Positions 6,390 through 59,658 are shown, counted from the stretch's first letter. The stretch is 64,000 nt of DNA from an uncultured bacterium (GCA_964463175.1 CAYXBJ010000112.1:1331-65330); one strand, 5' to 3'. The notes: generated by a model from the letters alone, not told the origin. Translations and numbers: made by a program.

Positions 6390-7811
6390 TCACGATGGCT
6401 CGCCCACTCGTGAGCTCGTCCCGGTCGGGGTCCGTGGGATCCGGGACATGATTGCCAGTCGCTTCCCGGACGGCGTGCGCTCGATGGCGTCGACGGTCGC
6501 CACTCGCACGCGTGTTCCCGGGCCAAGCAGAGTCTCGAGCTCTCGCCGGAAGAACTCGCCGATCGCGTTCGTGTAGCGCGTCGTCGGGACCAGACGGAGC
6601 TCCACCGTCCCGGGCGACTCCTGCACGGCCTGATACTCCCACACGTACGGAACCGCGTCACCGACCGTCACGAGGCACTGCCCGAGCACCGCCGCCGAGA
6701 TCGCGCGGCCGTCGGGGGTCACCAGGGTCTCGCTCACGCGGCCCTCGATCGCGGCGATGGTCGGCCAGCCGCGGCCGCATGCGCATGGCGGACCGAGGAC
6801 GGCGGTGTCACCCAGCTCGTAATTGATGAACGGCATCACGTGGTTGACGAGGTCGGTCACAACCACGCGCCCCTGCTCCCCCGGGGCCACGCTCCTCCCT
6901 GCGGCGTCGACCACTCGTACAATCGCCCGCTCCGCGTTCACGTGCAGGACGGCGGGGTTGTCCGGGCAGGTCTGGGCAATGCGTGGAATCTCGAGACAGG
7001 AGTAGTGGCTCCGGACGGGGGCTGCAAAGGCCCGCTCGATGGCGTCGCGCTCGGGCGTCAGCAACGTCTCGGCCGCGGCAATCACGACACGCGGCGCGAC
7101 CGCCAGCGGACGCCCGTCCTCCAGCAGTTCGCGGGCGAGCCGACCAGCGTACGACGCGTATGCCCAGATATGGTACGGCCGGTGCCGCGCCCATCGGTCG
7201 ATAGCCGATCGCAGCGCTGGCAGCGTCGTGTCCGGCCCGGCGAGCCACACCTGCTCCCGGCCGAATAGCCACCGGCGCGCGCGGGCGGCAAGCGGGCCGA
7301 CATGCTTGCCCGCGAGGTACATATTCCGCGGGCTCGCGACGACGATCTCCGTGTGCCAGTAGGCGGTTTTCGCCCACTCCAGGAAGAGGAGATAGGCGCC
7401 GGTCCACGTGTCCGCGCCCGCCCGGTCCAGGAAGAACTCGAACGGCTCCCCGGTCGACCCGGACGTCACGCCGCGCAGTCGCCGGCGGTCGGGCAGATTC
7501 TCGGCGGTCACGCCGCTCGGAAAGCGGCGACGAAGGGCCGCCTTCGTCGTGATGGGTATCCGTGCCAGGTCATCGCTCGTCCGGATCGACCCGGGGTCGA
7601 GGCCAGCAGCGGCGAACAGCTCGCGGTAGTACGGGACGTGCGCCGCGGCGGGCACGACCAGCGCTTGGAGGCGCTCGGCGACGCGCGCCTCCAGCTCGCT
7701 CGGGCCCGTCCACTGCCGGGATCGCAGCCTCGTCACCTCCGTCCAGAAGCGACGCCCGGTCAGCCGCTCGCACGCCGGAAACATGAGCCGGGGAACGAGC
7801 GAGCTATACAT
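6390..7811 (-). CDS. PaaK/CapK/coenzyme-F390-synthetase-like adenylate-forming ligase, paralog A
   Basis: TSGSTGEPF AMP-binding P-loop-like motif and PaaK-family architecture (~470 aa). Start aligned with paralog B at conserved MYSSLVPRLMFPACERLTGRRFW. 8-nt overlap with paralog B stop. Confidence 0.7.
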   Translation of the reverse strand: MYSSLVPRLMFPACERLTGRRFWTEVTRLRSRQWTGPSELEARVAERLQALVVPAAAHVPYYRELFAAAGLDPGSIRTSDDLARIPITTKAALRRRFPSGVTAENLPDRRRLRGVTSGSTGEPFEFFLDRAGADTWTGAYLLFLEWAKTAYWHTEIVVASPRNMYLAGKHVGPLAARARRWLFGREQVWLAGPDTTLPALRSAIDRWARHRPYHIWAYASYAGRLARELLEDGRPLAVAPRVVIAAAETLLTPERDAIERAFAAPVRSHYSCLEIPRIAQTCPDNPAVLHVNAERAIVRVVDAAGRSVAPGEQGRVVVTDLVNHVMPFINYELGDTAVLGPPCACGRGWPTIAAIEGRVSETLVTPDGRAISAAVLGQCLVTVGDAVPYVWEYQAVQESPGTVELRLVPTTRYTNAIGEFFRRELETLLGPGTRVRVATVDAIERTPSGKRLAIMSRIPRTPTGTSSRVGEPS

Positions 7812-9201
7812 CGAGGGCGCTTTGGACTCGAGATACGATGACCGGGCGCTTGCCGGACGGCTCCGGGGGAATCCGGTCGACCACGTCCAACCGTAGCGCC
7901 ACATCGTCACCGAGGCATTCCTGAATCTCCGCCTGGAGAGCCGCGGCCGTGCCGGACGTGAAGTGTGGCGCCGGCACCACGCGGAGCACGACCTGGTCCG
8001 GCGCAATCTGCTCGGCCTGATACTCCCAGACTTCGGCCGTGCGGCTACCGAGCGAGGGTAGCTGGTTCAGGAGAATCGCCGACACCAGCCGCCCGGACGA
8101 GGTCCGGATCACTTCGCTCGTCCGCCCCTCCAGGCCGGTCAGCGTCGGCCAGCCGCGGCCGCACGGACAGATCCCCGCGTCCGCGCCCCAGTCGCCGATG
8201 TCGTAGTTCACGAAGGGCTGGACGTAGTTGGACAGGACCGTCAGCTGCAGGCGCCCGGGCTCTCCCGGCCCGGCCGGCGTGCCGTCTGCCCGCGAGACCC
8301 AGAAGACGGCCCGCTCGGAGTTCACGTGAAGAACGGCGGGATTGTCGGGGCAGGTCTGAGCGACGTGCATGGCCTCCCAGCTCGAGTAATGGTTGACCAC
8401 GCGCGCTCGAAACGCTTGGGCGATGACCGCCTCCCGTGCGGCGGTGAGGGTCTCCGAGACGCTGATCACGACGCGAGGCGACACGGGCAACCGGACGTCG
8501 GCCGCGAGGAGCCGGGTTCCGAGCTCCGCCGCGTAGGCCGGGTAGGCACGCACGTGATAGCCCCGGTGGATCGGGATGCGGGCCACGATCGCGGCCAATT
8601 CCGCAGCGGTGAGCTCGGGCCCGAGCACCGCACGGACGTCCTCGCCGAGGACGAGGCGGCGGAGCGGCCGGCTGACCTTCGAGACCAGCCACGGGGCAGT
8701 GTGGTAAGAGCGACCCAGTCGCACGCCCAGGTCAATCCGCGTCTGCCAGAGGGCCGCTCCGGCCCATTCGAGGAAGAGGAGGTAGGAGGCCAGGGTCTCG
8801 TCGGCGCTGGTCGGGTCGCCGCAGATCTCGAAGGGGAAGCCCGTTGAGCCGGATGTGGTCGTTCTGAACCGGCGAGGCGCCGGCCGGTCGTCGGCCACGA
8901 TCTCGCCCGGTGAACGGGCGCGGAGGGCTGCCTTGGTTGTCGGTGGCAACCAGGGGAGGTCCTCGATGCGGCGGACCCCCGCCGGATCGACGCCCGTCGC
9001 GTCGAAGAGCTCCCGGTAGTACGGGACGTGACGGTGGGCGTGGACCAGGAGGGCGCGCAGACGCACGGCAGCGCGGGCCGCCAGCTCGTCCGGTGAGCGC
9101 CACTGCAGCGTCCGCATCTCCTGAAATCGCGTCCACAGTCGGCGACCAGTCAGCCGCTCGTACGCGGGAAGGACGACACGGGGCACGTACCAGCTATGCA
9201 T
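7804..9201 (-). CDS. PaaK/CapK/coenzyme-F390-synthetase-like adenylate-forming ligase, paralog B
   Basis: TSGSTGFPF motif. N-terminus MHSWYVPRVVLPAYERLTGRRLW aligns to paralog A. 8-nt overlap with asnB-like stop (9194) and with the paralog A start. Confidence 0.7.
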   Translation of the reverse strand: MHSWYVPRVVLPAYERLTGRRLWTRFQEMRTLQWRSPDELAARAAVRLRALLVHAHRHVPYYRELFDATGVDPAGVRRIEDLPWLPPTTKAALRARSPGEIVADDRPAPRRFRTTTSGSTGFPFEICGDPTSADETLASYLLFLEWAGAALWQTRIDLGVRLGRSYHTAPWLVSKVSRPLRRLVLGEDVRAVLGPELTAAELAAIVARIPIHRGYHVRAYPAYAAELGTRLLAADVRLPVSPRVVISVSETLTAAREAVIAQAFRARVVNHYSSWEAMHVAQTCPDNPAVLHVNSERAVFWVSRADGTPAGPGEPGRLQLTVLSNYVQPFVNYDIGDWGADAGICPCGRGWPTLTGLEGRTSEVIRTSSGRLVSAILLNQLPSLGSRTAEVWEYQAEQIAPDQVVLRVVPAPHFTSGTAAALQAEIQECLGDDVALRLDVVDRIPPEPSGKRPVIVSRVQSALDV

Positions 9202-11119
9202 GGCCCGCCGCCATGCCAGGCGCTCGTACGTCATTCACGGCCGAGGCTCCCGGACGTCGAAATAGATCGTGCCAGAGCTGGACGCCCAGGATGGCCCACA
9301 AAAGCTGCCCGTCGGAGCGCGCGTCGGCGCGGTGGCGAGCCACCAGGGCCTGCACCGCGGCCGCATCGAAATAGCCGTCTCTCCGCAGGCGTTCCGCGGA
9401 CAACAGAGTCTCGGCGAATTCCGGAAGTCGCCCGCGCAGCCATGCCCCGACCGGTGCACGTAGCGGGCGCTTTCGCCGCCAGGCGATGGCCGGCGGCAGA
9501 TCCGAGGCCATCGCTCGGCGCAGGATGTACTTCTCGCGGCCCCGACGCAGGCAGAGCCGCCCCGGAATTCCGGCCGCCAGCTCGATCAATTCGTGATCGA
9601 GAAACGGCACGCGCGCTTCCAGACCGAACGCCATCGTCGTGCGGTCGAGGCTTTCGGTCATGTATCCGGCCAGCCGAGTCAGGAGGTCGTGATATCGCAG
9701 TCCGGCGAAGCGGTCACAGGGCGTGGACGGGTCACCCGGAGGGTCCTCGGCGGTAGTCCCTCCACCGAGCTGAGCCCGGAGATCGGCAGCGAGCAGCGTG
9801 CGGCGGGTTTCGCCGCCGAGCGGGCCGGCCAGACAGGCGTATCGGGGGAGGTCCATCTCGGCGGGCGCCAGCAGGAGCCGGCTCCCCCATGGCCACCGCC
9901 TGCGCCCCATCCCACCCAGGAGCAGGCCATTCCGGAGCCACCGCGGGAGCCGTGACGCCGAATGCAGGAGGCGGTCGCCGAGATGCCACGCATAGCCACC
10001 GAAGACCTCGTCCGCGCCCTCGCCGGTCAGCACCACCTTGACGCGACGAGCCGCCGTCTCGGCCAGCAAGAAACGTGGCAGATCCGGCGTATACGCGGCG
10101 GGCGTTTCCACGTGCCACAGGACCTCGGGGTAGCGGCGAAGGGATGCCGCGTCACACACGACACGCTCGTTCGGCAGCTCCTGCCCCGGAACCTGGGACA
10201 AGAGTCGCTGGCCACGTGTCTCGTCATAGTCGGCTGACTCGAAGGCGACGGTAAACGTGGGAAGTGGACCCACGATCCCGCGGGCAAGGGCCACGACCGC
10301 GCTCGAGTCCAGGCCGCCGCTGAGCCAGGCTCCCAGGCCCACGTCGGCCCGCGTATACAGCGCGACGGTCTCCGCCAGCTTCGCGTGGAGATCCTCGGCC
10401 CACTCCCGGCCGCTCCGCTCGGAAGGCCGCTCGCGGGACAGAACCTCCGCCAGCCGCCAGTATGGCCGGACCACGGAGCGTCCACTCTCGTAGACGAGCC
10501 AGTGGCCAGGCGGCAGTCTCCGGATCCCGGAGAAGAGCGTGCCGGGATCCCGCACGAAGCCGAACAGGAGGAGGTCGTCGAGCGCCCGCACGTCGAGGGG
10601 TCCGGGCTCGACGCCCCCCGCGAGGATCGCCTTCTGCTCCGATGCGAAGTGGAGGCCCGCAGGCCCCTCGAAGTAGTGGAGCGGCTTGATGCCGAGCCGA
10701 TCCCGTACGAGCCAGAGTCGTCGGCGCCGCGTGTCCCACAGCGCGAAGGCGAACATGCCGCGCAGGCGACCGACGCTTTCGACGTCGTCTTCCTCATACA
10801 GGTGGACGATGACCTCGACGTCGGAGTTCGTGCGAAATTGGTGGCCGCGGGCTTCGAGCCCGGCGCGGAGCGTCGCGTGGTTGTAGATCTCGCCGTTGCA
10901 GACGACGAGGAGCGAGCCGTCCTCGTTGCCTATGGGCTGGTCGCCGGAGGCGAGGTCGATGATGGCGAGGCGCTGGACGCCCAGGCCGATACCGGGCCCG
11001 GTGTACACGCCGCGGCTGTCCGGCCCGCGATGCCGCAGCGTGCCCGCCATCCGTTCCACGAGCTCACGCGGCGCTGGCTGCCTCGCATCGGACAGGGCCA
11101 CACCGGCGATTCCGCACAC
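9194..11119 (-). CDS. Asparagine synthetase (glutamine-hydrolysing) family amidotransferase (AsnB/WbpS-like)
   Basis: Begins V/M-CGIAG, i.e. the Ntn glutaminase nucleophile Cys is directly after the start codon. SGGLDSS PP-loop ATP pyrophosphatase motif present. 641 aa. GTG start 11117-11119 is preceded by a GGAGGA RBS (spacing 5). Confidence 0.85.
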   Translation of the reverse strand: MCGIAGVALSDARQPAPRELVERMAGTLRHRGPDSRGVYTGPGIGLGVQRLAIIDLASGDQPIGNEDGSLLVVCNGEIYNHATLRAGLEARGHQFRTNSDVEVIVHLYEEDDVESVGRLRGMFAFALWDTRRRRLWLVRDRLGIKPLHYFEGPAGLHFASEQKAILAGGVEPGPLDVRALDDLLLFGFVRDPGTLFSGIRRLPPGHWLVYESGRSVVRPYWRLAEVLSRERPSERSGREWAEDLHAKLAETVALYTRADVGLGAWLSGGLDSSAVVALARGIVGPLPTFTVAFESADYDETRGQRLLSQVPGQELPNERVVCDAASLRRYPEVLWHVETPAAYTPDLPRFLLAETAARRVKVVLTGEGADEVFGGYAWHLGDRLLHSASRLPRWLRNGLLLGGMGRRRWPWGSRLLLAPAEMDLPRYACLAGPLGGETRRTLLAADLRAQLGGGTTAEDPPGDPSTPCDRFAGLRYHDLLTRLAGYMTESLDRTTMAFGLEARVPFLDHELIELAAGIPGRLCLRRGREKYILRRAMASDLPPAIAWRRKRPLRAPVGAWLRGRLPEFAETLLSAERLRRDGYFDAAAVQALVARHRADARSDGQLLWAILGVQLWHDLFRRPGASAVNDVRAPGMAAGHA

Positions 11120-11205: not shown

Positions 11206-11742
11206 CTACACTCCGCGCGCCGTCGTCCAGCGCCGCTGGACCATCGGAACGGCCATGGCGGTGCGCCACGTCGTCGACGCCCCGAGCGCGCCCAGAACCA
11301 CCAGGCTCAGCGCGATGCCGACGGGCCACGGGGCGACCATGAACCCGAGAGCCGTCGCCAGCTCGCGCCCGGCGAACCAGTCCGTGACGATCTTCGCGAG
11401 CTGCATGTTGAGGAGCACGCCGCCCGCGCCGCTGACGAGTCGGCCGCCCGCGACCACCGGCCACGACTGGCCGATCACCAGGGCCGCGCCGCCGAGCGTC
11501 ATCAGTGCGAGCGCCGACAGGACGACCGCGCGATCGCCGAATCGCGCGCCGAGAAGACCTCCGGGCATCGCGAGGACCGCGCCGGGCAGGAGATAGAGCC
11601 CGATCAGCGTGCCGAGCTGCGCGTAGCTGAGGCCGAGGTCCGCCACCGGGAGCGGACCCACGGCCGCGGCCGACTGGAACTGGAAGGCCATGGCGGTCCG
11701 CGCCACCACCACGAGGCCGAGGACGGCCCATCGGCTTTGCAC
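11206..11742 (-). pseudogene. MFS transporter N-terminal half only (6 TM, 178 aa). Probable truncated remnant
   Basis: MFS-like TM helices (motif A-like GARFGDR) but the ORF stops after about six helices. Only 87 nt separate the stop from the asnB-like start, so there is no room for a C-terminal half. Confidence 0.45.
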
Positions 11743-11861
11743 GCGCCAAGGCTACTCAATTGCCGGCTGTCGTGGAACCCGACAGTCCGGACGGTCCCCG
11801 GCTGAATAGGCCCCCGGCGCCCTCCATCCAATTGGTCGTGAACAAGGAGGAGGACACGACA

Positions 11862-12359
11862 ATGAAGAAGATTCTGGTAGCCGCTCTGGTCCTGCCGGTG
11901 GCGCTGCTGGGCGCCGCGCGGCCCGCCAAGGCCAGCGACAAGGCCGCGGCGATCTTCGCCGGTGTGGCGGCGGGCGTCGGCGCCGCGCTGATCTTCGATG
12001 CGCTCGTCCCGCACCCCGTGGTGGTGGCCCCGGCGCCGGTCATCGTCCAGGCGCCCCCGCCGCCGCCGGTTGTGTACCAGCCGGCGCCCGTGGTGTATCA
12101 GGCGCCGCCCCCGGTGGTGTATCAGCCGGCGCCCGTGGTATATCAGGCGCTGCCCCCGGTCGTGTATGAGGCCGCGCCCGTGGTATATCAGGCGCCGCCG
12201 CGGGTCGTGTACCGGGCGCCAGTGGTGGTCCAGGCGCCGCCCCGTGTGATCGTGAAGCACCCCCGTCGCGTCGTTTACACGCCGGGTCCGGCCTACGTCC
12301 GTGACGGCCACGGCCACTGGGTGACGCCGCCGCCGGCCCGGGAGCTCTACCAGCGCTAG
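11862..12359 (+). CDS. Secreted proline-rich tandem-repeat protein (about seven repeats of P-V-V-Y-Q-A-P)
   Basis: AGGAGG RBS 7 nt upstream of ATG 11862. Signal peptide MKKILVAALVLPVALLGAARPAKA. Body of 21-nt repeats. The track ORF 11760..12359 has a non-coding-like extension. Confidence 0.6.
   Translation: MKKILVAALVLPVALLGAARPAKASDKAAAIFAGVAAGVGAALIFDALVPHPVVVAPAPVIVQAPPPPPVVYQPAPVVYQAPPPVVYQPAPVVYQALPPVVYEAAPVVYQAPPRVVYRAPVVVQAPPRVIVKHPRRVVYTPGPAYVRDGHGHWVTPPPARELYQR
12036..12245 (+). repeat. Tandem 21-nt (heptad-codon) repeats inside the proline-rich protein gene
   Basis: Visible repeats ccggtggtgtatcaggcgccg / cccgtggtatatcaggcgctg etc. encoding PVVYQAP variants. Confidence 0.6.
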
Positions 12360-12386
12360 CCAGTCGCACGGTCCCGATCGGCTCGA

Positions 12387-12422
12387 CAGCGGGCGACTCC
12401 AGGTCGCCCGCTGTTCGTTTGT
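12387..12422 (+). terminator. Rho-independent terminator downstream of the repeat-protein gene
   Basis: Perfect 11-bp stem cagcgggcgac / gtcgcccgctg with 5-nt loop, followed by the T-rich tract ttcgtttgt. Confidence 0.65.
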
Positions 12423-12603
12423 CCCGCCCGAAATCCGGGGCCCGTCCGTGGGCTCACTGCGAGCCGTGTAGTACCCTCGAACCCGCCGTGAACAAGCGCT
12501 CGAACGAGGACTGGCTGCGCGAGCTCCGCGCGAGCGGCGAGGGCCAGGCCGCCGCGGTCGGCGACCTCCGTGCCTATCAGCGGCAACGCGGAGGTGCTTA
12601 GAG

Positions 12604-13521
12604 TTAGCCCGCTTGCTGGAACAGCGCGTAGCGCTCCGCCAGGAACTCGGGATTGGGGCGCGAGTCCGCGCGTCGGGGAATTGTGATCTTCGTGCCCTGG
12701 AATCTCAGGAGTCCGTGTTGAAGCGTGGGGCCGTCCTTCTCGCGCAAAATGTCTACCCGGAGTTCCACCGTCAGGTCAGGGCGGATTCCGAGTAAATGCC
12801 GATCGAATGCTGCGTGGTGAAGACTGCACAGGGCGAGGCCATTGGGGACCACCGGCTCCCCCCGCGGGTGTCCGTCGGGCAGAATGTGCGCCGCATCGAG
12901 TAGTTCCCGGTGCCGGAAGCGACAGACGGCACACTGCTCCCGATACGCGTGGAGAATGCGCTCCCGGAACGCGCGCTGATGGACCCGCTGGAGCGCGACC
13001 CTCGTGACGTACCGCCGACGCACGTCTGCCGCGAGCATCTGGTCGGGGCTCCCCGTCGAGAAGAGGCGATCACGATCTTCGATCAGTACGGTGAAACAGA
13101 GCCCCCGCGGATCATCCTCCACGATATAGGCGGGCCAGTCAGCCACATACCGGCCGGGAACGATGCCGTGCAAGTACACGAGCGGGGTACGTCGCTGCAT
13201 GGCCAATCGCAGGCCTATGTTGTCACGGTGTGCAGGATCAGTCCCCCTGTATCGGTAACGAATGACACCATCAGGCCCGATCTCGTCGTCATACGGGCGC
13301 GGACGTCCTGCAACCGCGGGGGCCGTAGCTATGCTGAGCGGCATGTCGGGCAGGATGGCGGGCTTGAAGATTCCCTGTGGGCCGAGCAGGGGCACGCGGC
13401 GGCCCTCGAAATCAAAACCACGCAGAAGTGCCTCGTACGGCAGGGTGTCTGGATGGCGGAGTGTTAGCTCCCCGAGGAACTGAAAGGCCGCAAGTCGCAC
13501 ACGACTGTCGAGGTCGCCCAC
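12604..13521 (-). CDS. Putative modification-dependent (type IV) restriction endonuclease: N-terminal SRA/YDG-like domain + C-terminal HNH (HNH_2) nuclease
   Basis: C-terminal CAVCRF...LLDAAHILP...NGLALCSLHHAAFD matches the HNH_2-type Zn-finger nuclease. N-terminal YDDEIGPDGVIRYRYRGTDP resembles the SRA/YDG base-flipping motif (Y-E/D-D-D...G...Y.Y.G.G). The gene has clearly lower GC and atypical codons (AGT, CTT, TTT, ATA, GAT) compared with its neighbours. Confidence 0.6.
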   Translation of the reverse strand: MGDLDSRVRLAAFQFLGELTLRHPDTLPYEALLRGFDFEGRRVPLLGPQGIFKPAILPDMPLSIATAPAVAGRPRPYDDEIGPDGVIRYRYRGTDPAHRDNIGLRLAMQRRTPLVYLHGIVPGRYVADWPAYIVEDDPRGLCFTVLIEDRDRLFSTGSPDQMLAADVRRRYVTRVALQRVHQRAFRERILHAYREQCAVCRFRHRELLDAAHILPDGHPRGEPVVPNGLALCSLHHAAFDRHLLGIRPDLTVELRVDILREKDGPTLQHGLLRFQGTKITIPRRADSRPNPEFLAERYALFQQAG

Positions 13522-13639
13522 GTCATCGCCTGAGTGGGCGCGAGCCTACGGCAGGATCGACAGACCTGCAACATCGGGTCACAACGTGCAGTCCCCTGGT
13601 CCCGAACCGACCTGGACGTTGTCGAGTGGCGATCTCGTC

Positions 13640-15622
13640 TCAGATCGCGCGGCCGACGCGCGCGGCGTCCAGCATGGCGAGGAGAAGCGTCCGGGGCGCG
13701 TAGGCGTCGCCGATGAGATGGAGGGCGGGCGCGTCCTCCCGCCCCGCGGTGAGCGTGGCGAGCTCGTGATAGAGCTGGTCCCGCGCCTGGCCGCCCGAGG
13801 CAAGGATCACCGTGTCGGCGGGGATCGTCCACTCGGCGTCCGTCAGCATGTGGCGCACGCGCACGCGGCCCGCGTCGATGGCGACGGGCGCCGCCAGCAC
13901 GGTGATCGTCACGCCCTGGCGCAGGAGGCGCTCGAGCAGCTTGGCGCGGAGAGTGGTGCCGATGTCCTCGCCGAGGCTGTACTGGCGCGTGACGATCTCG
14001 ACGGCGTGGCCGGCCTGGCTGAGCGCATCGGCCACCTTCGGTCCGGGGGTATAGCTCGTCTCGTCCAGGATCACGGCGCGCCCGCGGATCGGCGCGGTCC
14101 CGGCCAGCACGTCGGTCGCGGAAACGACGTGCGCCCGGTCGACGCCGGGCAGCCGCGGCCGGCGCGGATCGGCGCCGGTCGCCACGACCACGGCGTCCGG
14201 GCGCTCCGCGAGCACCGCCGTCGCGGTCGCGGCCACGCCGAGCCGCACCTCGACCTTCAGCCGGCTGATCTGCCGGGCGAGCCAGTCGATCGCGGTCGCG
14301 TAGGCTTCCCATCCCGGCGCCCGCGCCGCAATCCGCAGCGCGCCGCCCAGGCGGCCCTCGCGTTCGAGGAGCGTCACGCCATGGCCGCGCTCGGCCAGGA
14401 CGCGCGCCGCCTCCATGCCGGCCGGGCCGCCGCCGACGACCAGGACCCGCCGCGCGGTGGCCGCCGGAACCAGCGTGCCCCACTCGCGCTCGCGCCCGAT
14501 AACGGGATTCTGGACGCAGCCGATCGGCAGCCCGAAGTAGAGGCGGTCGATGCAGCCCTCCGCCGAGCCCATGCACACGCGGATGTCGTCGAGCCGGCCC
14601 TCGCGCGCCTTCCGCGGCAGCTCCGGATCGGCGATCAGGGCGCGCGTCATGCCCACGAGATCCGCCGCGCCGCTCCGGAGCACCTCCTCGGCCTGAGTCG
14701 GCGTCACGATCCGCCCGGTGACGATCACCGGCGTCCGCACCGCCGCTTTGATGCGGGCCGCTAGGTGCACGAACGGGCCGAGCCCGTAGTACGCCGAGGG
14801 ATTGTTGTAGCCCCGCGAGCGGAACGTCGAGATCGTCCCGCCGGTGACTGTGAAGTAGTCGAGCTGACCGGTCCGGTCCAGTCGCGTGATGATCTCGAGC
14901 AGCTCGTCCGGCTGGAGGCCCTCCGGCAGCGCGTCGTCGCCCGAGATCCGCGCGCCGACGACGAAGTCGCGGCTCACCGCGCCGCGCACCGCCTCGAGCA
15001 CCTCGAGCGAGAAGCGCATCCGGTTGTCGAGACTCCCGCCGTACTGATCGGTCCGCAGGTTGATGGCGGGACTCCAGAACTGGTCGGGCAGCTGGTCGGC
15101 GTAGAACGCGAGATCGGCACCGTCGAAGCCGCACGCCTGGAGACGCCGGCACGACGCGGCGTAATCGTCGACCATCCGGCGGATCTCGCCCACCGACAGC
15201 ACGTGAGGGATCCCCGGCGAGAGCTGGCTCGACGTGGCGGAGGGACCCGAGCCGCACCGGTCGAGGTGGTGATAGCTGCGCCGGCCGCTCGAGGTGACCT
15301 GGCTCAGCGCGAGCGCGCCATGCGCCTTGACGGCCCGGGCGGCCGCCCGGAGCCCGGGCTCGGCGGCCGGATGCCAGAGGTTGACGTGATTCGGCGGCGT
15401 CGGGGTCTGCGGCGACGCGGAGGCGGACCCGAACATCATCACGGTTCCGCAGCCGCCGGCCGCCTTCGCCGCGTGATAGGCGATGATCCGCTCGCCCGGC
15501 GCGCCGTCGACGGCCATGTTCGTGCCGTGGCTCGTCGAGACGATCCGGTTCGGCGCCTCCGCGTGGCCGCGCGGGCCGAAGCGAAACGGGCTGAAGAGGA
15601 GGGGGAACGGCGACGGGGCCAT
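13640..15622 (-). CDS. OYE-type NADH:flavin oxidoreductase with 4Fe-4S and C-terminal FAD/NAD(P)-binding domain (2,4-dienoyl-CoA reductase / trimethylamine-dehydrogenase family)
   Basis: N-terminal LFSPFRFG...HGAHGYL-type old-yellow-enzyme TIM barrel. Cys cluster VCMGSAEGCIDR...IGCVQNP. GxGxxG Rossmann motif (VVGGGPAGMEAA). 660 aa. Confidence 0.8.
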   Translation of the reverse strand: MAPSPFPLLFSPFRFGPRGHAEAPNRIVSTSHGTNMAVDGAPGERIIAYHAAKAAGGCGTVMMFGSASASPQTPTPPNHVNLWHPAAEPGLRAAARAVKAHGALALSQVTSSGRRSYHHLDRCGSGPSATSSQLSPGIPHVLSVGEIRRMVDDYAASCRRLQACGFDGADLAFYADQLPDQFWSPAINLRTDQYGGSLDNRMRFSLEVLEAVRGAVSRDFVVGARISGDDALPEGLQPDELLEIITRLDRTGQLDYFTVTGGTISTFRSRGYNNPSAYYGLGPFVHLAARIKAAVRTPVIVTGRIVTPTQAEEVLRSGAADLVGMTRALIADPELPRKAREGRLDDIRVCMGSAEGCIDRLYFGLPIGCVQNPVIGREREWGTLVPAATARRVLVVGGGPAGMEAARVLAERGHGVTLLEREGRLGGALRIAARAPGWEAYATAIDWLARQISRLKVEVRLGVAATATAVLAERPDAVVVATGADPRRPRLPGVDRAHVVSATDVLAGTAPIRGRAVILDETSYTPGPKVADALSQAGHAVEIVTRQYSLGEDIGTTLRAKLLERLLRQGVTITVLAAPVAIDAGRVRVRHMLTDAEWTIPADTVILASGGQARDQLYHELATLTAGREDAPALHLIGDAYAPRTLLLAMLDAARVGRAI

Positions 15623-15665
15623 TGCTGCGCGGGGTCCGGTCCGGGTCAGTCGGCCCTGGCCCGCG

Positions 15666-16685
15666 TCACCGTCCGCGCGCCGGCGCGCCGGGCTTCACCG
15701 CCCGCGCGACGGCCGCGATGTGCTCCGGTCGCATCCCGCAGCAGCCGCCGACGATGGCGTAGCCCTCGCCCACGTAGCGCCGCGCGTGATCGGCCAGCTC
15801 CTCCGGCGAGACCGTGTGCTCCCAGCGCCACTGGTACATGTCGTAGCGCCCGTTGTTGGGATAGACGCCGAGCGGCAGGGACGTGAAGCCGCGGAGCCAC
15901 GGCGCCACCCCGTGGGCATTCGCCGGCGGCAGGCAGTGGACCAGCACGGCGCCGGCGCCCACCTCCTCGAGGCGCCGGGCAGCGCGCCCGAACAGATCGC
16001 CGTCCGCCGGCAGCGCGTCGCCGAAGATGCCGACCGGGCCACCCACGCCGCGGCGGTATGCGACCCACAGGGGGACTCCCGTCGCGACGAGCGTCCCGTA
16101 GTGCGGGAAGCTCAGATCCTCGGGGATGGGCGGCGCCAGCTCGACGAGGAACGCGTCCGGCGGCTCCGACTCGAGGGCTCGCGCGAGGTCGCGGAGGTAC
16201 TCGTGCGAGACCATCTCCTTCCAGTCCTTGCTGCCGCGACCGCTGCTCGCCCGGTTGTCGGGCCAGTCGGCCTTCGGCGAGTCCTGGATCATCATCGCGA
16301 AGACGACCGCGAGGTCCGGCCGGCCCCCCTCGCGCGCTGCCTCGCGAGCCAGGCGCACGCTGAGCCGCGCCTTCTCGCGCCACGTCCCGGCCGGCACGGC
16401 CAGGTCCCCGTCCTGCTCCATGCGCACGCACCGGTGGAACATGAAGGTGTTCGTGAGGAGGATGTCGGCGCCGGCGTCGACGTAGCGCCGGTGCATCGCC
16501 TTCACCGTCTCGGGAGCCTCGTAGAGCCCGAGCGTCCCCCAGGTGAAGTTCACCGGGCGGTCGGCCCGGGCCGGAGGATAGCCCATGGCCTGGAGCTCCG
16601 AGCCGATCCCGCCGTCCATGACGGTCGGCTCCCCGCGCGCCCACCGCGCCTTGAGCTGACGATAGACCGACGATTCGTGGCTCAT
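15666..16685 (-). CDS. Homocysteine S-methyltransferase (MmuM/BHMT family)
   Basis: MDGGIGSEL...ILLTNTF...GGCCG (C-terminal Zn-binding Cys pair) is typical of Pfam S-methyl_trans. Start ATG 16683-16685. Confidence 0.75.
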   Translation of the reverse strand: MSHESSVYRQLKARWARGEPTVMDGGIGSELQAMGYPPARADRPVNFTWGTLGLYEAPETVKAMHRRYVDAGADILLTNTFMFHRCVRMEQDGDLAVPAGTWREKARLSVRLAREAAREGGRPDLAVVFAMMIQDSPKADWPDNRASSGRGSKDWKEMVSHEYLRDLARALESEPPDAFLVELAPPIPEDLSFPHYGTLVATGVPLWVAYRRGVGGPVGIFGDALPADGDLFGRAARRLEEVGAGAVLVHCLPPANAHGVAPWLRGFTSLPLGVYPNNGRYDMYQWRWEHTVSPEELADHARRYVGEGYAIVGGCCGMRPEHIAAVARAVKPGAPARGR

Positions 16686-16828
16686 GGGTCTCGACGCGCG
16701 GCATGATATACGCGCCTCGGTTTCCGCCACAAGGCGTCATGCCGCGCGCGGCGATGAATCGATCGCGCGAGGCCCGCCGCCGGGCGCCCCGCGAGCCGAG
16801 ACCGCGAGGTCACGGCCGATCGCGGGCG

Positions 16829-20643: not shown

Positions 20644-20817
20644 CCGGCTCCCCGGGCCGGCCGATCTCGAGGTCGCGCCGGCGCCCAGGCGATTGTAAAC
20701 CGTTCGCTCTGGACGCACGCGGTACACTCGTGGCTTGAATCGCCCGCGCGTGTCAGGCGGTCACGCTGCCGACGGGCGCGGCGGGACGGGTGATCCACGG
20801 GCACGCGAAGGAGTGAC

Positions 20818-54673: not shown

Positions 54674-55767
54674 CCGCCCGTCCGCCCATTCGCGCCGTCC
54701 ATCAGCTGGTGTCGAACTTCGATCTCGGGGACGCCATCGGCAATCACGTCCGGGCGCTCCGCCGGCTCCTCCGGAGCTGGGGGTACGCATCCGACGTGTA
54801 CGCCCAGTACCGCCACATGAGCCTCCTCAAGGACGCGCACTTCTACACGACGTATCGCGCGGTGTCCTCGCCCGACACGGTCGTGCTGTTCCACTTCTCG
54901 ATCGGCTCGGAGGTGACGAGCTTCTTCGCCGGCCTGCCGGACCGCCGGGCGATCGTGTACCACAACATCACGCCGCCCGAGTACTTCGTCGGCGTCAACG
55001 CGCGGGTCGCGGATCGGTGCCGGCGCGGGCGCTGGGAGCTGGCCCGGCTCCGCACCGTGACGGAGCTCGCCCTCGGCGTCTCGGAGTTCAACCGGCAGGA
55101 GCTCGAGACCGCGGGATTCCGGCAGACCGGGGTCCTGCCGATCCTCGTCGACTGGGACCAATACGCGCATTCGCCGGTCCGCGCGCTCGAGGAGGCTTAC
55201 GGGCGCGGCACGAACCTCCTCTTCGTCGGCCGCCTCGCCCCGAACAAGCGGATCGAAGATCTGATCAAGGCGTACTACTTCTACCGGCGGCTCGAGCCGG
55301 ACAGCCGCCTGATCATGGTGGGCTCGGCGGTCGACACCGAGACCTACCTCGCCGGTTGCCAGAAGCTCTGCGCGGAGCTGGGGCTCCTCGACCACGTGGT
55401 GTTCGCGGGCAGCGTGTCGCAGGCCGAGCTCTGCACCTACTACCGTCTCGCGGCGGCCTACCTCTGTCTCTCCGAGCACGAGGGCTTCTGCGTGCCGCTC
55501 CTCGAAGCCATGCACTTCGACGTGCCGGTCGTCGCCTACGCGGCGGCGGGCGTGCCCGGCACGATGGGCGACGCCGGCCTCCTCGTCCACGAGAAGGACT
55601 TCCCCGCGATCGCCGAGCTCACTCACCGGGTCGTCCACGATCCCGTGGTGCGCGCCGCCGTCGTCCGCGGGCAGCGCGACCGGCTCCGGGCCTTCGACGC
55701 CGAGACGATCGGCGCCACCCTGCGCGGGCACCTCGAGACCCTGACCAGCGCGGAGGCGGTCCGGTGA
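54670..55767 (+). CDS. GT4 family glycosyltransferase (distinct subfamily)
   Basis: ...EHEGFCVPLLEAMHFDVPVVA (EX7E motif). GTG 54670 overlaps the upstream stop (GTGA). Confidence 0.75.
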   Translation: MTARPPIRAVHQLVSNFDLGDAIGNHVRALRRLLRSWGYASDVYAQYRHMSLLKDAHFYTTYRAVSSPDTVVLFHFSIGSEVTSFFAGLPDRRAIVYHNITPPEYFVGVNARVADRCRRGRWELARLRTVTELALGVSEFNRQELETAGFRQTGVLPILVDWDQYAHSPVRALEEAYGRGTNLLFVGRLAPNKRIEDLIKAYYFYRRLEPDSRLIMVGSAVDTETYLAGCQKLCAELGLLDHVVFAGSVSQAELCTYYRLAAAYLCLSEHEGFCVPLLEAMHFDVPVVAYAAAGVPGTMGDAGLLVHEKDFPAIAELTHRVVHDPVVRAAVVRGQRDRLRAFDAETIGATLRGHLETLTSAEAVR

Positions 55768-56969
55768 GCGCCTCCGGGCCGCGACTGCGGCTCGCCTTCG
55801 TGGTGCAGCGCTACGGCCCGGAGATCGACGGGGGCGCCGAGTACGAGTGCCGTCGCGTCGCCGAGGCCCTGGCGCCTCACCACACCGTCGAGGTGCTGAC
55901 CACGTGCGCCCGCGACTACCTCACCTGGCGGAACGTCTACTCGCCAGGCGTCGAGACGGTCAACGGCGTCCGCGTGCGCCGCTTCGCGGTGGACCGGCCG
56001 CGCCGGGTGCGCGCGTTCGGGCGCTACGCCGACTGGCTCTACGCCACCCCCCACACCTTCTTCGACGAGGCGGAGTGGGTGCGGCTCCAGGGGCCGATCT
56101 GCCCGGCGCTCGTCGAGTGGATCCGGGCTCACGCCGATGACCACGACGGCTTCGTCTTCTACACGTACCTCTATCTCCCGACAACGCTCGGGCTGCCGCT
56201 GGTCGCCCACAAGGCGGTGCTCGTGCCGACGGCCCACGACGAGCGGCCGATCTACCTGGATCTCTTCCGGAGCCTGTTTCGGATCCCGCGCGGGCTGATC
56301 TTCCAGGTCGAGGAGGAGCGGGCGTTCGTCGAGGGGCGCTTCCACACCGCGCACCTGCCTTCGGCGGTGATCGGCGCGGGGATCGACCCGGTCGCCGACG
56401 CCGACGCGGCGCGGTTCCGGCGGCAGCACGGGCTCGAGGGTCCGTACTTCCTCTACGTCGGGCGGGTCGACGTCGAGAAGGGCTGCCGGACGCTCGTCGA
56501 CGCGTTCCTCCAGTGGCGCGAGCGCGCGCCGGAGCCGGTGACGCTGGTCCTCATGGGCACCGTCGCGCTGAAGCTCCCGCGCCATCCGGCCATCCGCGCC
56601 CTCGGCTTCCGGCCCGACCAGGAAAAGCACGACGCCATTGCGGGCGCGACGGCCCTCGTCATGCCGTCGCCCCACGAGAGCTTCTCGTTCGTGATCCTCG
56701 AGGCGTGGTCCCAGGGCACGCCGGTCCTCGCGACCACGCGCTCCCCGGTCCTCCGGGGCCACGTGGAGCGCTCCGGCGCGGGACTCCTCTACGACCGCGC
56801 GCCGGGCGACTTCGGCGCCGCCGCCGCGAGCCTGCTCGCCGACGAGTCGCTCCGGAAGACCTTCGGCGAGCGGGGCCGCGCCTACGTCGAGGCGCGCTAT
56901 CGCTGGCCGGGCATCACCCGCCAGTACCTCGACTTCCTCGGACGCGTCTTCGCGGGGCCGGCGGAATAG
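55764..56969 (+). CDS. GT4 family glycosyltransferase, paralog 3 of the RYG-GGAE group
   Basis: LRLAFVVQRYGPEIDGGAEYEC...LEAWSQGTPVL. GTGA overlap with the upstream gene. Confidence 0.8.
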   Translation: MSASGPRLRLAFVVQRYGPEIDGGAEYECRRVAEALAPHHTVEVLTTCARDYLTWRNVYSPGVETVNGVRVRRFAVDRPRRVRAFGRYADWLYATPHTFFDEAEWVRLQGPICPALVEWIRAHADDHDGFVFYTYLYLPTTLGLPLVAHKAVLVPTAHDERPIYLDLFRSLFRIPRGLIFQVEEERAFVEGRFHTAHLPSAVIGAGIDPVADADAARFRRQHGLEGPYFLYVGRVDVEKGCRTLVDAFLQWRERAPEPVTLVLMGTVALKLPRHPAIRALGFRPDQEKHDAIAGATALVMPSPHESFSFVILEAWSQGTPVLATTRSPVLRGHVERSGAGLLYDRAPGDFGAAAASLLADESLRKTFGERGRAYVEARYRWPGITRQYLDFLGRVFAGPAE

Positions 56970-57701: not shown

Positions 57702-58423
57702 TGGCCTCGGTCGTGCTGCCCACGTACAACGAGCGCGACGTCATTGTCGGCGTGGTCGCCGAGATCCTGGACGCCGTTGGCGACGTCGAGGTGCTGGTCG
57801 TGGACGACGACTCGCCGGACCGGACCTGGGAGCTGGTCGACTCGGCCTTCGCCAGCGACGGCCGGGCGCGCGCCCTCCGGCGAGTCGGCCGCCGCGGCCT
57901 CCCGTCGGCGATCGCCGAGGGCGTCGGGGCCACCACGGGCGAGGTGGTGGTGTGGCTGGACGCGGACGGCTCCATGCCCGCCGACGTCATCCCGCGCCTG
58001 GTCGCCGCCACGGCGGGCGCCGACGTGGCGGTCGCATCGCGCTACGCCCCGGGCGGGAAGGACGCGCGCGATTCGACCGCCCGGATCCTGGCGTCGCGCG
58101 CCATCAACACCTTCGGCACGCTGTGTCTCGGGGGCCCGGTCCGCGACTGGACGTCGGGCTTCGTGGCGGCGCGGCGCGGCGCGCTCGCGCGGGTGCCGAT
58201 CCGCGCCGACCACGCCTACGGGGACTACTGCATCGATTTTCTCCACCGGGCGTGTCGCCAGGGTCTCCGGGTGGTCGAGGTGCCGTACGCGTGCGTGGAA
58301 CGGCGCGCGGGCACCACCAAGACCAGTCCGAGCCTCCGGCGATTCGCGGCCCTGGGATTGCGCTACGTCCACACCATCCGGCGGCTCCGACGGGAGAGCC
58401 GCACCGAGGAGGATCGGTCGTGA
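57698..58423 (+). CDS. GT2 family polyprenyl-phosphate sugar transferase (DPM1/ArnC-like), copy 1
   Basis: VVLPTYNERDVI...VVDDDSPD...LDADGS (DxD) is the signature of dolichyl/undecaprenyl-phosphate glycosyltransferases. ATGA overlap with methyltransferase stop. Confidence 0.8.
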   Translation: MMASVVLPTYNERDVIVGVVAEILDAVGDVEVLVVDDDSPDRTWELVDSAFASDGRARALRRVGRRGLPSAIAEGVGATTGEVVVWLDADGSMPADVIPRLVAATAGADVAVASRYAPGGKDARDSTARILASRAINTFGTLCLGGPVRDWTSGFVAARRGALARVPIRADHAYGDYCIDFLHRACRQGLRVVEVPYACVERRAGTTKTSPSLRRFAALGLRYVHTIRRLRRESRTEEDRS

Positions 58424-59658
58424 TCGAAGAGACCCGACTGCCCGAGGACGTCATGGCCGAGCTCCTGCGCATCGTGCCGGGGCCCGAGCCGGCGCTGGAG
58501 GTCCGTCTCCCCCGCATCCCCGTGGTGGAAGAGTCGCTGAGCCGCCAGATCATTCCCGTGTCGGACCCGCGCCTGGACGGCAACGAGCTGCGCTACCTCA
58601 CCCAGTGCGTCCAGTCGAACTGGATCTCCTCGGCCGGCCGCTTCGTGCGGGAATTCGAGGAGAATTTCGCCCAGCTGGTCGGGTGCAAGTACGGGGTCGC
58701 CTGCTCGAACGGGACCACGTCGCTCCACCTCGCGCTGGTGACCTTCGGCCTCGAGCCGGGGGACGAGGTCATCCTCCCCGCCTTCACGATGATTGCGACC
58801 GCGAACGCCGTCAAATACACCGGTGCCACCCCCGTGCTGGTCGACTCGGAGCGCGATACCTGGAATCCGGACACGTCGAAGATCGCCGCGGCCATCACGC
58901 CCCGGACCAAGGGGATCATCGTCGTCCATACCTACGGCCATCCGGTGGACATGGATCCGGTCATGGAGGCCGCCGCGCGGCGGGGCCTGTGGGTCCTGGA
59001 GGACGCCGCGGAGGCCCACGGCGCGATTTACCGGAACCGGCCCATCGGGAGCATCGGCCAGGCCGCCTCCTTCTCCTTCTACGCGAACAAAATCATCACG
59101 ACCGGCGAGGGCGGCATGGTCACCACGAACGACCTGGAGATCGCGCGCCTCGGCCGCCGGCTGCGCGATCACGCCTTCTCGGACGAGCGCCACTTCTGGC
59201 ACAAGTACCTCGGCTTCAACTACCGGATGACCAACATGCAGGCCGCGGTAGGCCTCGCGCAGTGCGAGCGACTGGAGGAGTTCGTGCGCATCCGCCGCGA
59301 CAACGCCGCCCGCTACTCGGCGCGGCTCAAGCGGATCCCCGGGCTCACGCTGCCGGTGGAGAAGGACTGGGCGAAGAACGTCTACTGGATGTACGGCGTC
59401 GTGGTCGAGGACGAGTTCGGCATCTCCCGGGACGAGCTCCGGCGGCGGCTTGCCCGGCGCGGCATCGAGACCCGCACCTTCTTCATTCCCATCCACATGC
59501 AGCCGATCTACTATGAGTTGTTCCGCGGGCAGCGGTTCCCGGTGGCCGAGGAGCTCTGCCAGCGCGGGCTCTACCTGCCCTCGGGCGCGACCCTGACGGA
59601 GGCCGAGGTGGCCTACGTGTGCCAGGCCGTGGCCGAGGTGCGAGAGGAACGCGGATGA
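58420..59658 (+). CDS. DegT/DnrJ/EryC1/StrS sugar aminotransferase (2 of 3)
   Basis: FSFYANKIITTGEGG. GAGGAGG RBS 7 nt upstream of GTG 58420, which overlaps the GT2 stop. Confidence 0.8.
   Translation: MIEETRLPEDVMAELLRIVPGPEPALEVRLPRIPVVEESLSRQIIPVSDPRLDGNELRYLTQCVQSNWISSAGRFVREFEENFAQLVGCKYGVACSNGTTSLHLALVTFGLEPGDEVILPAFTMIATANAVKYTGATPVLVDSERDTWNPDTSKIAAAITPRTKGIIVVHTYGHPVDMDPVMEAAARRGLWVLEDAAEAHGAIYRNRPIGSIGQAASFSFYANKIITTGEGGMVTTNDLEIARLGRRLRDHAFSDERHFWHKYLGFNYRMTNMQAAVGLAQCERLEEFVRIRRDNAARYSARLKRIPGLTLPVEKDWAKNVYWMYGVVVEDEFGISRDELRRRLARRGIETRTFFIPIHMQPIYYELFRGQRFPVAEELCQRGLYLPSGATLTEAEVAYVCQAVAEVREERG

Follow-up and report, generated by a model that had tools for sequence, protein, structure and literature searches.

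The HNH gene of a 64,000-nucleotide (nt) stretch of DNA from an uncultured bacterium (GCA_964463175.1 CAYXBJ010000112.1:1331-65330; this whole stretch is called the window) probably encodes a stand-alone type IV modification-dependent restriction endonuclease, which represents a previously uncharacterised family with a divergent SRA-like sensor. The product is laid out as a sensor domain that is SRA-like by prediction, a linker helix, an HNH_2 nuclease, and a C-terminal helical extension (Table 1).

Composition of the HNH gene

The 918-nt gene described in an earlier note on this DNA was recovered as a real, complete open reading frame (ORF) of 305 codons plus a stop codon. Since full-length homologues align from residue 1, and since ATG stands at the same codon in the closest relative (locus L001, described below), the GTG start is sound. 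The GC content of the gene was 0.641, as compared to 0.715 for the whole window. The GC content at third codon positions (GC3) was 0.719, while the 39 other confidently coding genes of the window showed a mean of 0.922 (standard deviation 0.030, minimum 0.815); the HNH gene had the lowest GC3 of the set, with a z of about -6.7. The six codons that the earlier note had named as rare in the neighbouring genes were 4-16 fold over-represented in the HNH gene, the frequencies per 1000 codons in this gene vs the others being 6.5 vs 1.1 for AGT, 13.1 vs 2.7 for CTT, 6.5 vs 1.6 for TTT, 6.5 vs 0.4 for ATA, 29.4 vs 7.7 for GAT, and 6.5 vs 1.0 for CTA. Given the GC3 deviation and the excess of rare codons, the compositional anomaly is real and lies far beyond gene-to-gene scatter, and both the low GC and the unusual codon usage reported previously were thus confirmed.

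The nuclease half

Residues 197-246 matched the Pfam family HNH_2 (PF13391) with an E-value of 4.2e-11 (43 bits against a cut-off of 21), and all the motifs of this nuclease type were present (C197-x2-C200, AAHILP, NGLALC, and HHAAFD), in agreement with the C-terminal HNH_2-type nuclease that had been proposed. TagI is the one SRA-HNH enzyme with a crystal structure, and its aligned zinc and catalytic residues have been shown to be essential. Residue roles were taken over from the TagI structure paper through a residue-by-residue alignment. C197 and C200 correspond to C210 and C213 of TagI, and C232 and H235 correspond to C250 and D253, all of which have a structural zinc role in TagI. H212 corresponds to the general base H229, N227 to the structural Asn N245, and H236 and D240 to H254 and D258 of the catalytic metal site. 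The eight zinc and catalytic residues were invariant in 37 homologues. The nuclease site is intact, and the HNH_2 nuclease is predicted to be active.

The nuclease part extends beyond the HNH core into a module of a pre-HNH helix, the core, and the C-terminal helices, which was matched by the PADLOC model PDLC04132 'HNH' at 4.3e-22. The NCBIfam model PT-DNA_restrict (NF045808) matched at 6.4e-20 (71.4 bits against a cut-off of 180) through profile positions 157-276 of 284 only; this match covers the nuclease part alone, namely the C-terminal ~120 residues. These profile matches indicate that the extended module is common to phosphorothioate (PT)-dependent and other sensor-HNH restriction enzymes. 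Another PADLOC model, PDLC03546 'Type II restriction enzyme', also matched the C-terminal part of the HNH protein, and among the members of HNH_2 (COG3440) are type IIS enzymes whose recognition domains are unrelated. Both facts would suit a different reading, in which the N-terminal half is a sequence-specific recognition domain with an unrelated fold, such as the type IIS HNH_2 enzymes AlwI and HphI have, the SRA likeness is spurious, and the protein is an orphan or toxin-like nuclease. This reading is taken up again with the fold of the N-terminal half.

The putative sensor half

Residues 1-150, the putative modified-base sensor, had no match in Pfam (even at E ≤ 1), NCBIfam, or PADLOC, and yet the N-terminal half is the most conserved part of the family. 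Conservation was evaluated with 203 family N-domains, down to 40% identity. The positions conserved in at least 90% of them were G50 (100%), I51 (99%), F52 (90%), K53 (92%), and P54 (99%) in the G47-P54 loop; P76, Y77 (99%), D79 (98%), Y89 (100%), Y91 (97%), R92 (95%), and G93 (96%) in and next to the putative flipped-base pocket; and H98, N101, R105, Y116, Y125, P130, and D136. In alignments, this loop falls on the base-flipping 'thumb' loop (G-V-H-R-P) of SRA domains, and in the Allochromatium homologue it reads GIHRP. The motif Y-D-D-E-x3-G-x3-Y-x-Y-x-G, in which the earlier note had seen the base-flipping pocket of SRA/YDG domains, is present in the translation as Y77 to G93. By their positions in this motif, Y77 and Y89 would be the aromatic walls of the putative pocket and D79 its candidate carboxylate. 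The spacing from Y77 to Y89, 12 residues, equals that of Y466/Y478 in UHRF1 and Y55/Y67 in TagI.

In the AlphaFold2 models, the N-domain begins with a long helix, after which comes a β-barrel with two helices; its confidence (pLDDT) was about 90 within the model of the whole protein and 82.6 when the domain was modelled by itself. When the full-length model was compared with PDB structures using Foldseek, the best match was the SRA-HNH enzyme TagI (284 columns, E 5e-4), followed by SUVH5, SUVH6, and the SRA domain of ScoMcrA. With the N-domain model, the top 17 PDB matches were all SRA domains, with a TM-score of about 0.45 and probabilities of 0.82-0.99 for 15 of them and 0.51-0.66 for the remaining 2; SUVH5 reached 0.98-0.99. 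Against BFVD, a database of predicted viral structures, the top match of the N-domain model was a 'ScoMcrA-like SRA domain-containing protein'. No EVE, YTH, or ASCH match ranked above SRA in the Foldseek searches. These results suggest that the N-domain is SRA-like by predicted fold and belongs to the PUA superfamily.

The fold searches also bear on the sequence-specific reading introduced above. The lack of any SRA link by sequence and the modest fold-search scores agree with it, but SRA, and no other fold, topped all three Foldseek searches (two against PDB, one against BFVD), and it is aromatic and acidic residues that are conserved, which fits a base pocket. Moreover, a sequence-specific nuclease without its cognate methyltransferase would be lethal to the host, and no DNA methyltransferase family recurs among the neighbours in the 80 loci examined; in the window, neither a C5 nor an N6 methyltransferase motif was found in any credible ORF within the 64 kb. 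We therefore consider this reading very unlikely.

A number of results weigh against an SRA-type sensor in a defence enzyme, and they are collected here. The structural models were built from shallow alignments of 21-37 sequences, and only the best of the five models was confident. The Foldseek E-values for the N-domain alone (0.02-0.7), together with the TM-score of about 0.45, are suggestive and not decisive. A Pfam search for SAD_SRA (PF02182), the family to which the earlier note had pointed, gave no match to the HNH protein even at E ≤ 1, and the same was true of PF26348. A hidden Markov model (HMM) of 120 SRA domains gave no positive score on 208 family N-domains; reversed controls gave no matches either. 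Profile-profile alignments with hhalign were not significant, with probabilities of 0.8-1.2% and P of about 0.04-0.07. They comprised a run of the family profile against UHRF1; a second run, which compared 203 sequences of the family with 118 SRA domains from bacteria, with UHRF1, and with the query domain from Janthinobacterium; and a third run with permissive settings, in which five divergent plasmid homologues were added to the set of the second. The position of the 5mC (5-methylcytosine)-contacting Asp (D469 of UHRF1, D58 of TagI) is taken by E80, a position at which family members differ (E, Q, D, S, T, V, R, or G), and the invariant Asp lies one residue earlier, at D79. Finally, all the members are annotated only as 'HNH endonuclease', and many of their neighbours in the 80 loci are ordinary metabolic genes.

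The third hhalign run gave a collinear alignment of 107 columns in the SRA register, with P of about 0.07. In this register, which was established by eye and with the permissive run, GIFKP pairs with GVHRP, PYxD with GYEDD, YxYxG with YTGxG, and DNxGL with xNxAL, and the last three strands follow in order; the succession of secondary-structure elements likewise agrees with that of SRA. The identity of the N-domain to eukaryotic SRA domains (UHRF1 and SUVH5/6) was 16-20%, with a profile score that was not significant, and a search of PDB sequences with the family profile recovered only the HNH part of TagI and no SRA part. In contrast, UHRF1 finds TagI by sequence at 1.6e-20, and all 120 listed relatives of the Janthinobacterium SRA-HNH protein carry PF02182 in precomputed annotations. 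Because the sequence tests fail here while canonical members match trivially, the HNH protein appears to belong to a separate, divergent SRA-like-HNH family outside Pfam SAD_SRA. The SRA-like N-domain proposed in the earlier note is thus supported by the predicted fold and by the Y-to-Y spacing, but not by the Pfam, HMM, and profile-profile tests. Likewise, the order of sensor and HNH_2 nuclease is that of the SRA-HNH architecture, whereas membership of the characterised SRA-HNH family was not borne out. Among the matches of a representative search, the N-domain occurred only with HNH_2 partners, in fragments, or in probable gene-fusion artefacts.

Proposed mode of action and the modification read

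From the fold, the conserved residues, and the comparison with TagI, we infer the following mode of action. The N-terminal SRA-like β-barrel of ~150 residues would bind DNA and flip out of the helix a base that carries a chemical modification. This base would be held in a pocket lined by the near-invariant Y77, D79, Y89, and Y91, and the GPQGIFKP loop would serve as the 'thumb' that fills the gap. Binding by the sensor would tether or license the HNH_2 ββα-metal nuclease to nick or cut the DNA nearby, with C197, C200, C232, and H235 forming the structural zinc site, H212 acting as the general base, and H236 and D240 holding the catalytic metal. Like TagI, the enzyme probably works as a dimer. 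The host would be spared through not carrying the target modification, and hence no partner methyltransferase would be needed.

5mC or 5-hydroxymethylcytosine (5hmC) is the default guess for the modification, with a pocket unlike that of canonical SRA domains: the conserved carboxylate motif is Y-x-D here and Y-x-x-D there. This specificity is a guess only, because the equivalent of the 5mC-contacting Asp is not conserved in the family. The architecture and the defence role would be unchanged if the sensor read another modification, such as N4-methylcytosine, N6-methyladenine (6mA), glucosylated or hypermodified pyrimidines, 7-deazaguanines, or a backbone modification, and the family would then be a new specificity class of type IV enzymes. 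The invariant Y-x-D, the variation at the canonical Asp position, and an N-domain too divergent for any SRA model point in this direction, and PUA-like sensors with other specificities exist, e.g. ScoA3V, which is stimulated by 6mA. So does the gene context described in the next section, in which the Methylibium homologue lies near a phosphorothioation-associated gene and 12 of the 80 loci carry a second sensor-HNH paralogue with a nuclease end like that of the 5mC/5hmC enzyme VcaM4I; such pairing with a different sensor-HNH gene suggests that the two specificities complement each other and are not redundant. However, the best structural matches (SUVH5, TagI, and the ScoMcrA SRA domain) all read cytosine modification, and the aromatic-wall spacing is identical to that of 5mC pockets. 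A modification other than 5mC/5hmC is accordingly regarded as possible, though rather unlikely.

We also put forward, tentatively and with similar reserve, that the family is an undescribed branch of SRA-like readers whose altered pocket, marked by the invariant Y-x-D, Y-x-Y/F-x-G, H98, and N101 in the family alignment, would read a modification targeted by no characterised type IV enzyme. Given how common the family is in uncultured phyla of soil and groundwater, it would then represent an important defence gene that has been overlooked there, and it would supply a new reagent specific for a modification.

Distribution and gene context of the family

The family is widespread and its distribution is patchy. 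Clusters at 90% identity with a full-length match to the HNH protein numbered more than 6,778, with identities of 60-78% (typically 60-65%), and an N-domain profile recovered 2,184 clusters at 50% identity. The carriers comprise at least 592 GTDB species, mostly metagenome-assembled genomes (MAGs) from soil and groundwater, and are spread over more than a dozen phyla, including Rokubacteria/Methylomirabilota, Binatia, Acidobacteriota, Actinomycetota, Chloroflexota, Gemmatimonadota, Proteobacteria, Elusimicrobia, Nitrospirales, Planctomycetota, Bacteroidota, and Spirochaetales. The gene is also found in the cultured Allochromatium vinosum, Methylibium petroleiphilum, Azospirillum, Actinomyces oris, and Bradyrhizobium elkanii, including on plasmids or megaplasmids. 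A search of the literature found no paper that characterises any member of the family, and a phage collection contained no full-length homologue, only HNH-domain matches.

No partner gene is conserved. The 147 nearest neighbours in the 80 loci fell into 146 Pfam families, and no DNA methylase family was among those common to at least 2 neighbours. Integrases, RadC, STAND NTPases, and ResIII helicases occurred sporadically. Clustering of all flanking ORFs revealed a sole recurrent neighbour, a second sensor-HNH_2 gene encoding ~310 residues, which was directly adjacent in 12 of the 80 loci (L013, L019, L026, L028, L036, L042, L049, L054, L055, L060, L062, and L067; e.g. L042:6928-7869:+ and L062:4842-5777:+), usually in tandem. 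The product has a different N-domain, likewise without annotation, with the motifs VGVTDxxWFxFL, EVNFWxP, FLFKL, and GGGxF, and its nuclease end matched the EVE-HNH enzyme VcaM4I (6yex, 1e-6). Judging from this arrangement, the adjacent pair resembles a cassette of two sensor-HNH genes whose sensors differ.

Among the homologues of cultured bacteria, that of Allochromatium adjoins type I hsdR-hsdM-hsdS genes. The Methylibium homologue lies between recombinase, ParB, and IS3 genes, near the phosphorothioation-associated gene, and the Bradyrhizobium homologue lies between genes for a large ATPase, a UvrD-helicase, and a PD-(D/E)XK nuclease, both on conjugative plasmids. The GC content of the gene was lower than that of its flanks in 58 of 77 loci, which is consistent with a gene that keeps moving. 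Lutz et al. 2019 (PMC6765204) recognise modification-dependent PUA-HNH enzymes by the lack of nearby methyltransferases, which they treat as the hallmark, and the stand-alone, methyltransferase-free pattern of the HNH gene fits this hallmark. The HNH gene thus shows the features typical of type IV genes: it is a single gene, has no recurrent partner methyltransferase, and has a composition and a synonymous divergence (see below) that point to horizontal exchange. By comparison with known systems, this gene context makes a type IV defence role plausible.

History of the locus

Corresponding loci were found in two MAGs closely related to the window, namely L001 in a Candidatus Rokubacteria bin and L002 in a Methylomirabilia bin. 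The HNH gene directly follows the hydantoinase B gene in each of them (window 12604-20727, L001:2098-6915, and L002:1-1213 were compared). In the window, two extra genes, encoding a homocysteine S-methyltransferase and an OYE/FAD oxidoreductase, are interposed between hydantoinase B and the HNH gene. Between the window and L001, the products of the flanking genes were 92-95% identical, with 0.31-0.42 synonymous (dS) and 0.024-0.044 nonsynonymous (dN) substitutions per site. The HNH proteins were only 77% identical, with a dS of 1.39, a dN of 0.153, and a dN/dS ratio (ω) of 0.11. The dS of the HNH gene was therefore about four-fold that of the flanks, although its weaker codon bias may inflate this value somewhat, and an ω of about 0.11 for the L001/L002 alleles shows purifying selection. 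The low ω and the four-fold dS together indicate that the HNH gene is functional and constrained, with a history unlike that of its neighbours. From these comparisons, the most satisfactory explanation of the locus is that alleles have been replaced, or the gene acquired repeatedly, at a single variable slot, and the region after hydantoinase B appears as a variable hot spot. Horizontal acquisition, as claimed in the earlier note, is supported by the composition and by the elevated dS. The single-gene island of that note holds in terms of composition, but the gene is not a genome-specific insertion since divergent alleles occupy the same locus in two related MAGs.

The same data were used to weigh whether the HNH protein is, instead of a defence enzyme, a DNA-repair or maintenance nuclease whose PUA-like domain reads a damaged or mismatched base and which has been kept vertically in some lineages. 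An ω of about 0.11 similar to that of housekeeping neighbours, the same chromosomal position in three related genomes, the many metabolic neighbours, and the 60-65% identity across phyla could all be accommodated by such a role. This level of identity is, however, not unusual for such sensors, because canonical bacterial SRA domains are also 55-65% identical (120 matches listed). Furthermore, the gene is foreign in composition, its four-fold higher dS indicates allele replacement and not vertical descent, its context varies to the extent of almost one Pfam family per neighbour, and homologues occur on plasmids and beside restriction-modification genes, recombinases, and other sensor-HNH genes. 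A repair role thus seems highly improbable, and a type IV restriction endonuclease remains our preferred reading of the HNH gene.

Surroundings of the HNH gene

A three-way alignment showed that a 5' leader of ~65 nt is conserved with the HNH gene in the window, L001, and L002. Beyond it, the upstream sequences are the 3' ends of different genes in the three loci, which indicates that the HNH gene travels with its own leader. From its conservation and position, the leader probably carries the gene's own promoter and translation signals. The upstream neighbour is the FMN/FAD oxidoreductase gene, which the earlier note had taken for a convergent neighbour; it is in fact on the same strand and co-directional, and 118 nt separate its stop codon from the HNH start. 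The gene that does converge on the HNH gene encodes a Pro-rich repeat protein of 199 residues, with an N-terminal hydrophobic segment and many PVVYQAPP-type repeats (a weak PXPV repeat match). L001 has a convergent gene at the same position, the 3' end of which aligns with the Pro-rich gene, and L002 has no counterpart.

The spacer between the two convergent genes contains an inverted repeat that forms a hairpin with a perfect GC-rich stem of 12 bp (ACAGCGGGCGAC / GTCGCCCGCTGT) and a 5-nt loop. Its folding energy was -39 to -42 kcal/mol, with a z of -2.7 to -3.0 relative to shuffled sequences. The hairpin lies beyond both stop codons, ~27 nt from that of the Pro-rich gene and ~190 nt from that of the HNH gene, with a T-rich tail on the plus strand only, and it was not called by a scan for canonical terminators. 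It is more likely the terminator of the Pro-rich gene, or a bidirectional one. Thus, the hairpin behind the 'strong terminator' that had been placed beside the HNH gene is real, but it more likely terminates the convergent gene. The sole call of the terminator scan (13487-13505) was dismissed since it falls inside the 5' end of the coding sequence. Two small ORFs in the spacer between the HNH gene and the hairpin, 12419-12601 (+) and 12356-12586 (-), were dismissed for want of a family match. An imperfect direct repeat of 17 nt (14/17 identical; 12361-12377 and 13589-13605) brackets the HNH gene and its downstream spacer; it was rejected as an insertion scar because ~10 such matches are estimated to occur by chance in a GC-rich stretch.

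Three adjacent genes on the minus strand have a GC3 of 0.81-0.85, a value intermediate between that of the HNH gene and those of the other genes of the window; one of them encodes a homologue of glutamine-hydrolysing asparagine synthase; the other two are similar to each other and belong to no named family. This block is syntenic with L002 (76-83% amino acid identity) and absent from the L001 locus, and it may, judging from synteny and composition, be an older acquired block. A neighbouring MFS_1 transporter ORF has 178 codons, as compared to roughly 400 in typical members, and a similarly short remnant occupies the same place in L002; this ORF is probably a decaying gene fragment that borders the variable region. 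Far from the HNH gene, a GT4-family glycosyltransferase ORF upstream of a DegT/DnrJ-type aminotransferase gene has a GC3 of 0.76, which is low for the genome, and this ORF probably belongs to a polysaccharide gene cluster of atypical composition.

Table 1 Features of the HNH gene and of other parts of the window discussed in the text
Feature	Position	Strand	Description
HNH gene, complete coding sequence	12604..13521	-	918 nt; 305 aa + stop; GTG start, TAA stop
N-terminal domain, residues 1-150	13072..13521	-	Predicted helix 4-22, then predicted β-barrel and two helices; putative modified-base sensor
G47-P-Q-G-I-F-K-P54 loop	13360..13383	-	Aligns with SRA 'thumb' loop
Y77-D-D-E-I-G-P-D-G-V-I-R-Y89-R-Y91-R-G93	13243..13293	-	Putative flipped-base pocket
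HNH_2 ββα-Me core, residues 197-246	12784..12933	-	Pfam PF13391
Extended nuclease module, residues ~171-296	12634..13011	-	Pre-HNH helix, HNH core, C-terminal helices
5' leader, ~65 nt	13522..13590	-	Conserved with the HNH gene in window, L001, and L002
Hairpin	12386..12414		12-bp stem, 5-nt loop; more likely terminator of Pro-rich gene, or bidirectional
Pro-rich repeat protein gene	11760..12359	+	Convergent neighbour
FMN/FAD (OYE/FAD) oxidoreductase gene	13640..15622	-	Upstream, co-directional; interposed
Homocysteine S-methyltransferase gene	15666..16730		Interposed
Block of three adjacent genes	6390..11119	-	May be an older acquired block
Asparagine synthase homologue gene	9194..11119	-	Part of the block
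Gene without named family	7804..9234	-	Part of the block
Gene without named family	6390..8006	-	Part of the block
MFS_1 transporter ORF	11206..11742	-	178 aa; probably a decaying fragment
GT4-family glycosyltransferase ORF	55017..56969	+	GC3 0.76
DegT/DnrJ-type aminotransferase gene	57952..59658		Downstream of the glycosyltransferase ORF

Implications and comparison with known systems

Sensor-nuclease fusions have been a source of enzymes for mapping 5mC, 5hmC, and phosphorothioate, and so far a new specificity has come with every new sensor clade. The architecture of the HNH protein is unsurprising among restriction enzymes; its sensor clade, in turn, is large, unannotated, and concentrated in little-studied phyla. 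Domain libraries see nothing in this family beyond 'HNH endonuclease', and because they are blind to the N-domain, it would be missed by architecture-guided screens that start from Pfam/InterPro annotations of SRA and PUA domains. If the enzyme is modification-dependent, the type IV repertoire would be wider in Rokubacteria, Binatia, Acidobacteriota, Gemmatimonadota, and Chloroflexota, and a protein of 305 residues would be a tractable candidate for biochemistry. The locus also illustrates how a defence gene can be fixed in one chromosomal slot while its alleles are exchanged.

The closest known systems are the SRA-HNH enzymes (TagI, ScoA3IV/Sco5333, and TbiR51I; PF02182 + PF13391). They share with the HNH protein its size and the succession, predicted for the HNH protein, of an N-terminal β-barrel, a helical linker, and a C-terminal HNH_2 domain, and TagI is the best PDB match of the whole predicted model. 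The CxxC...CxxH variant of the zinc site, which has been noted for members of the SRA-HNH family, and the catalytic H...N...H-x3-D align one to one, the pocket tyrosines (putative in the HNH protein) are 12 residues apart in both, and neither has an associated methyltransferase. On the other hand, canonical SRA N-domains are found at E of about 1e-20, whereas that of the HNH protein is missed by Pfam, HMM, and profile-profile searches. In addition, the HNH protein has an extra N-terminal helix (4-22), ~8 more residues between the 'thumb' and the pocket, and Y-x-D in place of Y-x-x-D, with the canonical Asp position variable.

The SRA domain of ScoMcrA, an enzyme with a sulfur-binding domain (SBD) in the order SBD-SRA-HNH, was among the top fold matches. 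The nuclease module and C-terminal helices of the PT-dependent SBD-HNH enzymes (EcoWI and SprMcrA; NF045808) matched those of the HNH protein at 6e-20. Unlike both, the HNH protein has no sulfur-binding domain, and its NF045808 score is far below the cut-off. The EVE-HNH/PUA-HNH enzymes (VcaM4I, TspA15I, and ScoA3V; Lutz et al. 2019) resemble the HNH protein, as predicted, in having an N-terminal PUA-superfamily sensor, a C-terminal HNH domain, ~300 residues, and stand-alone genes that are rarely near methyltransferases. Fold searches of the HNH protein, however, return SRA and not EVE, and the nuclease end of VcaM4I is matched by the neighbouring paralogue of the 12 loci, not by the HNH protein itself. 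At the level of the domain, the SRA/YDG domains of UHRF1 and SUVH5/6 are the best structural matches, with collinear motifs; there the domain is fused to chromatin enzymes, whereas in the HNH protein it is fused to a nuclease.

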